Virus record (IMG/VR): IMGVR_UViG_3300005831_000020
Location: 1-58,202 of that record
Origin: a virus
DNA: 58,202 nt
Direction: 5' to 3' (one strand)
In this document: positions 55,492 through 57,536 of the stretch, piece by piece
Layout: each line of letters opens with the position of its first letter
How positions within the stretch are numbered: the first letter of the stretch is position 1
Program-made: the position numbers and the translations under genes
Notes under the pieces: model-generated
Told to the model about the DNA's origin: nothing
What the model saw: only the letters and a program-made list of their open reading frames with translations
The model's database searches: none

Positions 55492-55661
55492 ATAACCTCC
55501 GTATTATCGTTTAATAAATCCCAGCATGTTTGCAAAGATTTATTATCTACGTAGTCTTTGTCTGCCAGTATTTGCCATGTTAAACCATCATAAAACTCTA
55601 GCCTGGAGGCTTGAGTTTCCGGTGATTTGAGAGCCGATTTAGTATGTTTTGTTTTTTTCAT
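55476..55661 (-). CDS. Small fibre-cluster ORF carrying the second half of the fibre junction motif
   Basis: 61 aa, with ..SRLEFYDGLTWQIL.. at residues 19-32. Starts 1 nt after the upstream stop. Confidence 0.45.
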   Translation of the reverse strand: MKKTKHTKSALKSPETQASRLEFYDGLTWQILADKDYVDNKSLQTCWDLLNDNTEVIWQPL

Positions 55662-55662
55662 T

Positions 55663-56397
55663 TTAAATTTCCGTATTGAATCTAATAGTCCCTGCTACTG
55701 GAGTTGCAGGACGCTGCGCAGTTGTTCCGCCCGGAATAGTAATACCGGCATTACCCGGAATAATAGGGTTAGGGGCAATACTGACGGTTGCTATGTTATT
55801 ATCAACCGTAACAACGATTTGATCGACGCTACCTTGAACTCCCGTAATCCCATTTTGTGATAGCTTGGCAAAGATAATGCTATCCGTCCCGATAGTTGTA
55901 ACAATTGAGGTTAGCATCCAGGCAGTTACGCTGTTAGCCGTCCCGCTAATTACGTCAATAACTTCTCCTCTAATCATTTGAGACGGGGAATCAAAATCCA
56001 AGCTTCTAGTTAGTAGCCAGTTTTCGGTAGTAGAGCCGACATTAGTTACCGTATATATTCCGTTTTGGATGCTATCCGTTTGATCTTTAACTAGCACCCT
56101 GTTACCTGCAGCTAAAGTAACTCCGTCAACAACGAGCGTGCTTTGCGTTCCCGAATTGGTTAAAGTAGCTCCTACTCCGCTTATGCCGTTATCATAAGTA
56201 GCAGTTAAATTGCTAGTCGTTGCTACCAGAGCCGGAGGGATATTAGCTATAGTATTTAAAACCCAGTTTTCAGTAGCAAGAGTAAACCAGCTTGTCCCGT
56301 CGGTAATTTCCGGTTTACCGCTGGGTGTCGGTAGCGGTGCCGTTAATTTTGTAGATGCTTCTGTTTCTTTTTTATTAATATTGAGTTTTGTTTCCAT
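55663..56397 (-). CDS. Tail fibre protein
   Basis: 244 aa, Thr/Gly/Asn/Val-rich. N-terminal ..PEITDGTSWFTL.. and C-terminal ..RPATPVAGTIRFNTEI. Confidence 0.6.
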   Translation of the reverse strand: METKLNINKKETEASTKLTAPLPTPSGKPEITDGTSWFTLATENWVLNTIANIPPALVATTSNLTATYDNGISGVGATLTNSGTQSTLVVDGVTLAAGNRVLVKDQTDSIQNGIYTVTNVGSTTENWLLTRSLDFDSPSQMIRGEVIDVISGTANSVTAWMLTSIVTTIGTDSIIFAKLSQNGITGVQGSVDQIVVTVDNNIATVSIAPNPIIPGNAGITIPGGTTAQRPATPVAGTIRFNTEI

Positions 56398-56435
56398 TTT
56401 AAACCTCTTGTGATCATTTACAATTTTACCATAAA

Positions 56436-57536
56436 TTAAAGCGAAGTATTAAACCTCATCATTCCCGGAGTTAAAGTATTAGGTCGATCCAGGTTATTGC
56501 CGACCGGTATAGTCATCGATTTTTTACCCGTAAATACGGGATTGGGTGTAAAGACCGTCACAATCGGCGTACTTAATAACCCGCTACCGGTTACATCTCC
56601 TTGCAGGGTTAATCCGGTATTTAAAAGAGTATTTAAGTAGTCTTGAGCCGCAGTTGCGCTATTTGCCGCATTAGTTGCCGAGCCGCTTGCACTGCTTGCT
56701 GAATCGCTAGCATCAGATGCCGAACTTGATGCACTACCTGCTGAAAGCCCGGCAGCAAGTGCTGAAGCAGCCGCTGCTCCTGCCGATATTCCAGCTGCCC
56801 CTGCTGAAACACTAGCTTCGCCGGCAGCTGCTGTTGCTTCTGCTGCTGCTCCCGTAGCCTCTGTAGCTGAAGCGGCGGCTTCACCCGCACTCGTTGCCGC
56901 TGCTCCTGCTGAGGTTGATGCTTCTTCAGCTGAAGTAGCAGCTTGCTCTGCGTACTCCTGGCATTGTTGCTTTATTTCTTCTAATTGCTCGGCAGTTGCA
57001 TAATCCTCACCGGCGATAGCAATGGCAAAAGCACCATCAGCAACAATCTTGGCCATTCCTGTACCAAGTTCTTCTAAAACCTGTGCTTCAGGTAAATTAG
57101 TATTTGGAGTTCTAATTATGTAAGTAGCATCACTTGGAGCTGCCTTGCTTGTAATATCTATAAACGATAGAGTACCGGTGCCGTTTGTTGCTATTACCTG
57201 CCCGTTAGTTCCATCCTGCAGCGGTAATCTCCAGATGGTGTTTTGAGTTAAATTACCCGCAGTAAAGCCAACATAATAATCATTAGAAGGATTACTCCAC
57301 TTTAGCCTATTAGTAATAATATCTTCAGTATTAGTGATGCCGGCAGAGTTAATACCGGTTGCATATATTGTATAAAGCTCAGCAGTCCCGCCGGTAATAA
57401 CAGGAGACAAAATACTTTCAAAACTAGCCTCTTTTGCATATAAATAGTTAATTGGAGCAAGTCCCTCTCCTCTATTAGCTAGTGCTAAGAAGGCTGCTTT
57501 TTCTCTATCAAAACCCGGATTAAAATTATTAGCCAT
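56436..57536 (-). CDS. Tail fibre protein with a 14-heptad Ser/Ala repeat
   Basis: SAxxAxx heptads cover residues 202-299. The C-terminus reads ..RPNTLTPGMMRFNTSL. Confidence 0.65.
   Translation of the reverse strand: MANNFNPGFDREKAAFLALANRGEGLAPINYLYAKEASFESILSPVITGGTAELYTIYATGINSAGITNTEDIITNRLKWSNPSNDYYVGFTAGNLTQNTIWRLPLQDGTNGQVIATNGTGTLSFIDITSKAAPSDATYIIRTPNTNLPEAQVLEELGTGMAKIVADGAFAIAIAGEDYATAEQLEEIKQQCQEYAEQAATSAEEASTSAGAAATSAGEAAASATEATGAAAEATAAAGEASVSAGAAGISAGAAAASALAAGLSAGSASSSASDASDSASSASGSATNAANSATAAQDYLNTLLNTGLTLQGDVTGSGLLSTPIVTVFTPNPVFTGKKSMTIPVGNNLDRPNTLTPGMMRFNTSL
56640..56933. repeat. Tandem 21-bp (heptad-coding) GC-rich repeats
   Basis: Encodes SAEEAST SAGAAAT SAGEAAA SATEATG ... 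SATAAQD. Confidence 0.8.

Follow-up and report, generated by a model that had tools for sequence, protein, structure and literature searches.

A tail-fibre motif cut at the same turn by consecutive gene boundaries: a putative plug-and-socket joint between phage fibre segments

This analysis concerns a cluster of tail-fibre genes in a 58,202-nucleotide (nt) stretch of viral DNA (IMG/VR record IMGVR_UViG_3300005831_000020, positions 1 to 58,202), referred to here as the window, and in particular a conserved fibre motif that is divided over two consecutive gene boundaries within that cluster. Four genes are involved (A, B, s and C), of which A, B and C are classed as tail-fibre proteins by PHROG profiles, while C also carries a Peptidase_S74 domain (PF13884, residues 349-416, 29.6 bits versus a cut-off of 22; Pfam). 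The fibre-type genes are adjacent and lie in proximal-to-distal order, an order that is conserved among relatives. The features are the following, with coordinates as positions in the window and protein lengths in amino acids (aa):

56436..57536, minus strand: gene A, the proximal fibre segment, an open reading frame (ORF) of 366 aa that matches PHROG tail-fibre families over residues 158-317.
56439..56489, minus strand: first half-motif DRPNTLTPGMMRFNTSL, residues 350-366 of A (its C-terminus), kept in orthologues.
56398..56435, minus strand: spacer of 38 nt between A and B, with in-frame stops and the Shine-Dalgarno sequence AAGAGG (56404..56409).
55663..56397, minus strand: gene B, the middle fibre segment, 244 aa, with both half-motifs.
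56254..56337, minus strand: N-terminal module of B, PLPTPSGKPEITDGTSWFTLATENWVLN, residues 21-48, comprising the second half (strands 2-3) and the 'ATENWV' segment, behind a variable leader of 20 residues.
55858..56247, minus strand: core domain of B, residues 51-180, homologous to the LME-1 tail fibre orf22.
55666..55866, minus strand: C-terminal module of B, residues 178-244, which in PHROG corresponds to positions 3-66 of longer proteins.
55666..55716, minus strand: first half-motif QRPATPVAGTIRFNTEI, closing B.
55476..55661, minus strand: gene s, a putative adaptor of 61 aa.
55542..55604, minus strand: second half in s, RLEFYDGLTWQILADKDYVDN, residues 20-40.
55479..55526, minus strand: conserved tail of s, CWDLLNDNTEVIWQPL.
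54082..55491, minus strand: gene C, the distal fibre, 469 aa, with a C-terminal intramolecular-chaperone domain.
51606..51734 and 50991..51098, minus strand: two intact, divergent 'ERDA' copies of the motif in a 553-aa fibre-like protein.

A and B each stop exactly three residues past the invariant Asn of "RP..G..RFN", which belongs to the first half of the motif, and the second half is found near the start of the protein that follows, as PEITDGTSW at residues 29-37 of B and as LEFYDGLTW at residues 21-29 of s. The B/s boundary reads GAAATT TAA A ATG AAAAAAAC, with s starting one base after B, and A is parted from B by 38 nt. A survey of all window ORFs of 50 aa or more, 148 on the two strands together, gave just two occurrences of the first-half pattern, which are the last 17 residues of A and of B, and showed the N-terminal second-half pattern in B and s alone. 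The 553-aa protein indeed contains the two intact copies that an earlier, sequence-only reading of this DNA had quoted, both of the divergent 'ERDA' type, and what that reading had stated on the gene ends, the positions of the half-motifs and the boundary sequence holds as well. Its observation that gene boundaries split the motif is confirmed and far exceeds what chance would give, with one qualification as to the exactness of the split: in the window leaders and a spacer intervene, and exact abutment (three residues on either side, see below) is a property of relatives.

The A/B spacer, in which AAGAGG stands 6 nt ahead of the ATG of B, measures 4-81 nt among relatives. In the window it keeps a remnant, ATGGTAAAATTG-TAA (within 56398..56435), which in some relatives provides a start codon, upstream and in frame, that makes B 12 residues longer (MVKFI...), and annotated B starts therefore differ between loci.

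A scan of viral contigs (IMG/VR) with B gave 72 related loci with identities of 46-94%, among which 59 distinct junctions were found. In these loci 134 ORFs end in a first half, 113 of which are directly followed by a second-half ORF, while the remaining ones mostly concern contig ends or ORF-calling artefacts. Nearly all upstream genes close with G.(I/L/M)R(F/Y)N(T/I)(S/E)(L/I)-stop, and the upstream protein ends three residues past the Asn in 56 of the 58 tabulated distinct junctions. B itself opens with ..GK(P/Q)E..DG..W and closes with ..G..R(F/L)NT(S/E/N)(L/I)-stop, after which the next gene opens with.(K)(L/F)E..DG..W; A orthologues lie upstream of B in almost all loci. An alignment of homologous fibre clusters, which had been proposed as a check of the sequence-only reading, thus shows a boundary that recurs at the motif over 59 distinct junctions. 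A protein search with B gave 1002 homologues, the best 120 of which are either 223-248 aa long or, with a duplicated core, 367/371 aa (B proteins with a duplicated core include P0058 and P0085). Of 40 diverse B homologues that were aligned, 37 have their last residue exactly at Asn+3; residues G27, E30, D33, G34, W37, R229, G236, R239 and N241 are invariant, as are A41, E43, V46 and N48 in the N-terminal module.

Elsewhere the motif occurs unbroken. With the 67 C-terminal residues of B as query, an exhaustive search gave 770 representative proteins, many of them giant fibre proteins with up to 22 module copies, in which the C-terminal module of B is internal and repeated and has the second half after it. 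The first half was counted 383 times in the 150 best representatives and stands at a C-terminus in only 10 of these cases. The spacing from Asn to Glu is six in nearly all of 429 distinct contiguous copies, and the invariant residues of the intact module are R, G, R, N, E and W. A closer intact comparator than the 'ERDA' copies is P0169, which holds the motif as RFNSSL-VKY-ENYDGTTWKNVATENFVS (also quoted as ...RFNSSLVKYENYDGTTWKNVATENFVS), its split counterpart being ...RFNTSL-stop / M-KL-EFFDGSSWYSVATENFVN. Pseudo-joined halves align gap-free to natural intact copies, and an artificial join of the C-terminus of B with the motif of s aligns in one piece with N-terminal regions of cyanomyovirus proteins, for example with Syn33_041 of cyanophage Syn33 (GTSAQRPTSPVGGMLRYNSELDRLEFYDGTTWQIF), which is likewise a much closer intact comparator than the 'ERDA' copies. 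The motif profile also matches tailspike Gp49 (PDB 9d83, residues 370-406, E = 1.1e-5), where the C-terminal segment reads 'GTTAQRP...DTTLGKP.W.NG..W', and gives a weak match to CBA120 TSP3 (5w6f/6nw9).

What the intact motif may look like follows from an AlphaFold model of P0257, a small natural fibre protein with two intact copies, in which a strand-turn-strand-turn-strand arrangement is predicted at both (a monomer prediction from a 13-sequence alignment, with a mean predicted local distance difference test score (pLDDT) of 75 and block means of 73-85 over the motifs). The predicted order begins with a strand and a short helical turn at 'TAQ', after which come strand 1 (VRYN, 126-129), strand 2 (134-139) and strand 3 (144-147), and the gene-boundary cut maps to the four-residue turn between strands 1 and 2. 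According to this model both halves belong to one compact β-structure. The knob that comes after the motifs has a predicted fold that matches a domain of Pgp3, a Chlamydia plasmid protein, namely its trimeric, TNF-like C-terminal domain (Foldseek E about 1e-9).

The spacing at the gene boundaries is in line with a cut at this turn. Direct distal fibres start with MKLE, MA.LE, MPKFE or VPKFE, and at 17 of the 18 distinct direct distal-fibre junctions three residues follow the Asn and three mature residues precede the Glu, a count that assumes removal of Met before Ala, Pro or Thr. Three plus three residues restore the canonical six-residue turn, and this abutment is exact in relatives whose distal fibre opens with MKLEFFDG or MA.LE.FDG. 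The joints in the window only meet the six-residue spacing if their leaders of 20-28 residues are ignored.

Breakpoints of recombination were mapped by aligning pairs of loci with near-identical B and unrelated distal genes. In L022/L024 and L030/L039, identity spans the stop, the spacer and the first ~20 codons (MKLEFFDG..W....ENFVN) and then collapses, i.e. the upstream gene keeps the ~20-residue N-terminal module beside it and what lies past the module is exchanged, and in L065/L066 identity collapses inside the last 60 nt of B. In two of the three mapped swaps the second half (the plug of the model below) therefore stays with the upstream socket. The distal partners measure 44-1066 aa and are unrelated past the first ~20 residues. 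It follows from the positions of the breakpoints that the exchange points flank the joint, and the suggestion in the sequence-only reading that the motif is a recombination joint is supported as an evolutionary corollary, with breakpoints in the first half or just after the ~20-codon second half.

Following these results, it seems that a split β-meander is completed in trans as a head-to-tail plug-and-socket joint, which would double as a portable standard for recombination; this reading is favoured with moderate confidence. The fibre would be built from separately translated segments (A-B-s-C in the window, A-B-distal fibre in relatives), in which the end of the upstream protein ('IP.G.T.QRP....G..RFN-T-S/E-L/I') would supply strand 0, the short helical turn and strand 1, and the start of the downstream protein ('..(K)(L/F)-E-.-.-DG-..-W....A.E.(W/F)V') would form strands 2-3. 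Upon assembly, probably trimer to trimer, strand 1 would pair with strand 2 of the next segment and thereby rebuild the fold non-covalently, as plug and socket. Since both halves are constrained and the coding DNA is conserved, the joint would also be a portable interface for the recombinational exchange of distal receptor-binding cassettes, even between unrelated backbones. The N-terminal half-motif of s would plug into B, while its conserved C-terminal tail would recruit C. That segments dock head to tail by completing a split fold was one of the ideas of the sequence-only reading, and it gives the best fit to the 59 conserved junctions, the cut in a predicted β-turn, the 3+3 turn and the constrained halves, although the contact as such is deduced.

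A number of observations weigh against this model. Leaders of 28 (B) and 20 (s) residues precede the second half in the window, so that no exact abutment occurs here, and in relatives the B proteins and small adaptors carry poorly conserved leaders of 9-49 residues. The monomer model of B has a mean pLDDT of only 64.7 (~40-60 at the termini), and mutual information revealed no strong covariation between the halves in the 429 intact copies. Beyond those mentioned above, the exceptions among the 72 loci are L060/L061 and L046, in which the second half is a variant one, and L045, which has no partner gene next to B and a plasmid-like context, as an example of the few loci that hold B without adjacent partners. 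B, with both a plug and a socket, should moreover self-polymerise unless specificity exists. Finally, the physical contact between the halves is inferred, from conservation, as are the trimeric stoichiometry, the assembly order and the adaptor role of s. As to the monomer model of B itself, it has a low-confidence N-terminal hairpin (30-32/37-39) and leaves the C-terminal strand 1 unstructured, and the protein's own N- and C-terminal halves are not paired in it.

Some specificity is hinted at by the pairing of tails and partners, which is seen at both junction positions: tails in E-I/L are paired with E(F/Y)(Y/H), those in S/N-L mostly with E.(F/T/W). This lends weak support to cognate pairs, the pairing being confounded by shared ancestry. 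A wider proposal, in which a standardised split β-meander connector of short-tailed, apparently Rickettsiales phages combines ordered polymerisation, E-I versus S-L codes for cognate pairing, adaptors of 44-147 aa that would bring plug-less receptor-binding proteins to the standard and a cassette (stand-alone B on other mobile elements included) that passes between unrelated backbones, is plausible and is put forward tentatively.

According to one alternative, the split is only a scar of recombination or gene fission and the halves do not rebuild one fold, in which case the segments would attach by other surfaces, or the halves would act separately (capping or nucleating a trimer). This would agree with breakpoints in or beside the motif, with mosaic distal modules, with the N-terminal leaders that two of the three junction types have before the second half, and with intact copies that show no covariation between the halves. 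However, a scar would not hold both halves invariant at the protein level over ~1,000 homologues, nor would it fix the C-terminus at Asn+3 or keep the 3+3 length rule, and the plug travels with the upstream socket in two of the three swaps, as a co-adapted pair would. We regard this alternative as unlikely, while taking it seriously.

It is also conceivable that the joint is promiscuous or branched, i.e. that any second half fits any first half, which would give B multimers or mixed fibres. Both junctions use the same half-motifs, B carries the two kinds of end, B genes are found on their own in other genetic contexts, and P0058 and P0085 have duplicated their core; the consistent pairing of tails and partners at both positions and the fixed gene order nevertheless argue for cognate pairs, which makes promiscuity rather improbable.

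The sequence-only reading had further suggested that recoding may produce fused fibres, meaning that a programmed frameshift, read-through or bypass would join A-B, B-s and s-C into longer proteins. The TAA-A-ATG boundary of B and s in an A-rich stretch, the 16-nt overlap of s and C and the -1 frame of the downstream gene in three adaptor types could be seen as hints in that direction. Over the 59 distinct junctions, however, the relative frames of neighbouring genes are 25/25/9 and the intergenic gaps range from -11 to +116 nt, the stop codons TAA, TAG and TGA all occur, spacers hold additional in-frame stops, and every downstream gene has its own ATG or GTG start. Shine-Dalgarno-like sequences, checked in this window only, are present as AAGAGG for B and as GGAGG (55496..55500) for C, the latter inside s and 4 nt ahead of the ATG of C. 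No conserved slippery heptamer was found at the junctions and no X XXY YYZ at the s/C overlap, and the A-run at the B/s boundary codes for the Lys-rich leader of s, which is not conserved. With such variable frames and gaps, three different stop codons and separate start codons, recoding is very improbable. The earlier idea of a fusion of the 61-aa and 469-aa proteins is not supported either, as s is a gene in its own right that is under selection and C is served by a GGAGG ribosome-binding site of its own; s and C as one frameshifted gene was rejected for the same GGAGG, the lack of a heptamer and the fixed length of s with its selected tail. That the boundaries are artefacts (genes broken by assembly or sequencing error, or pseudogenes) has a negligible probability, for although the window looks metagenome-derived and homopolymer A-runs are error-prone, identical boundaries occur in >70 independent contigs, the finished chromosome CP113867.1 and ~1,000 database proteins, and s is under purifying selection.

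The length of s is constant (61 aa) and its tail, CWDLLND.TEVIWQPL, is conserved; residues 20-61 are under purifying selection, with a ratio of nonsynonymous to synonymous polymorphism (pN/pS) of about 0.08-0.3, and the Lys-rich, variable leader (residues 1-19) is almost neutral (pN/pS 0.7-1.1). C has no half-motif of its own, and in the loci examined s precedes distal fibres of the 'MATTVIVGG' type, with the start MATTVIVGGIKP.LKILGD and no half-motif. Related small proteins of 44, 90 and 147 aa with tails of the form (F/W)DLL.D.T.V.WQ lie ahead of similar fibres elsewhere. In L030, a 488-aa fibre that is 89% identical to C over residues 113-469 opens directly with MKLEFFDG, and no s gene is present. 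The simplest reading of this gene arrangement is that s is probably an adaptor that links the socket of B to the plug-less fibre C. The tail of s (..DLLNDNTEVIWQPL-stop, 55479..55526) and the start of C (MATTVIVGGIKPDLKILGD, 55402..55491), both on the minus strand, overlap and form a second conserved junction, and tails and starts akin to it recur with the 44-, 90- and 147-aa adaptors.

A prophage of Candidatus Megaera polyxenophila (CP113867.1) carries a patatin gene, an A-like protein (..GMIRYNIEL-stop), B (65% identity) and a distal fibre (VPKFEYWDG..), while its portal and terminase have no significant sequence similarity to those of the window, which indicates, as far as sequence comparison goes, that the fibre cassette crosses phage lineages. 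The large terminase of the window (8923..10542, minus strand) is 84% identical to that of a 62.7-kb scaffold in a Rickettsiales metagenome-assembled genome (RXKF01000009.1). Judged by these matches, the phages appear to infect Rickettsiales. These are intracellular bacteria for which, to our knowledge, very few phages are known, descriptions of such phages being very rare. A stand-alone B homologue of 238 aa with both half-motifs is found in L045 (3968..4684) among ParA-like, DNA-methylase and toxin-antitoxin-like genes, with a terminator-like hairpin on its 3' side and neither an A gene nor a distal fibre gene nearby; this B may belong to a plasmid or a satellite and provide a fibre segment from there.

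Apart from its motif halves, B has a core that matches residues 258-386 of chain AE of PDB 9efk (E = 3.6e-22, PDB sequence search), and PDB sequence searches with A and C gave no useful structures. The split motif was not found in LME-1 orf22 by the motif profile. Pelagiphage Mosig, the best cultured-phage match to B, was dropped as a comparator, as it shares only the B core, inside a 569-aa fibre without the motif, and says nothing on the split. In A, residues ~190-300 form a low-complexity shaft that is rich in Ala and Ser and differs greatly in length among orthologues (306-647 aa overall), which suggests that repeat expansion in the shaft tunes fibre length.

Other genes of the window code for a portal, a large terminase and a DnaB-like helicase, and the whole has the look of a complete phage genome of about 58 kb in circularly permuted form, since the capsid gene at 1086..2015 carries on the gene order that relatives show upstream of A. 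With 50000..58202 as query, a megablast over 50,697 phage records gave no near-identical DNA. Within the fibre cluster lies a gene for a patatin-like phospholipase (52542..53624, minus strand; PF01734, E = 1.6e-20), which both relatives and the Megaera prophage keep beside their fibre genes, a conservation that suggests a virion-associated or entry-related lipase. Directly 3' of the distal fibre is a conserved gene of 137 aa (53637..54050, minus strand; 124-140 aa in relatives) for which no family match was found and whose product is perhaps a factor for fibre assembly. Two further fibre-like genes, for proteins of 202 aa (51860..52468) and 553 aa (50223..51884), form a second pair on the minus strand with an overlap of 25 nt; this pair carries the divergent 'ERDA' motif form unbroken, and the 553-aa protein has a Gly-rich region at its end.

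If the proposed joint is real, it would provide a simple rule, readable from sequence, for the order and attachment of fibre segments, and it would account for the exchange of receptor-binding tips among phages that are not related. Under the wider proposal it would amount to donor-strand complementation in viral form and to a natural plug-and-play route to a change of host range. The joint would also serve as a compact connector (about 20 + 20 residues) for host-range engineering. The apparent Rickettsiales hosts lend the fibre system, with its embedded patatin-like phospholipase, added biological interest.

The long tail fibre of T4 consists of gp34-gp35-gp36-gp37, which are encoded by consecutive genes and joined head to tail in a non-covalent manner, and its distal segment determines receptor specificity and is exchanged by recombination. 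The present cluster is alike in its head-to-tail segments from consecutive genes and its swappable distal part, with the difference that one recognisable module, always cut in the same turn, makes up each joint here; we know of no shared split sequence motif at the joints of T4, and no sequence homology to T4 fibre proteins was found. KP32, K11 and KP34, which are podophages of Klebsiella, use an anchor/branching domain together with a conserved N-terminal docking peptide, which docks sideways onto a T4gp10-like branching domain and permits modular, even cross-genus, swapping (PMC6872550, PMC13352976). As in those phages, the downstream protein here has a short conserved N-terminal peptide that is kept when the remainder is swapped, but it is partnered by the very C-terminal end of the protein before it, and a single motif is divided between the two; no T4gp10-like branching domain was detected in A or B by Pfam, PHROG and PDB sequence searches, which a remote fold could escape. 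In the donor-strand complementation of chaperone-usher pili, an incomplete β-structure is completed by the terminal strand of a neighbour, which gives an ordered, non-covalent polymer. The likeness is one of proposed mechanism only, as the fold is unrelated, the assemblies here are presumably trimeric, and no Ig-like pilin, chaperone or usher domains were found in the cluster.

The tailspikes (Gp49 9d83, CBA120 TSP3) and giant fibres contain the same motif, but contiguous in one chain; the gene boundary inside the motif is specific to the A/B family. LME-1, a T7-like short-tailed Legionella podophage with six trimeric fibres (PMC12407071), has the homologue of the B core as a domain within a single protein of 658 aa (orf22). 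No description of a joint made of one fold cut at the same turn was found in full-text literature searches that included the motif strings, and searches on PDB 9D83 and on 'strand complementation' with tail fibre gave nothing relevant. The fibre joint is thus none of the T4, Klebsiella docking-peptide and pili systems, while it resembles each of them: multi-component tail fibres and conserved docking peptides were already known, but a joint recognisable as one fold that is cut at the same turn at each gene boundary was not, as far as these searches go.

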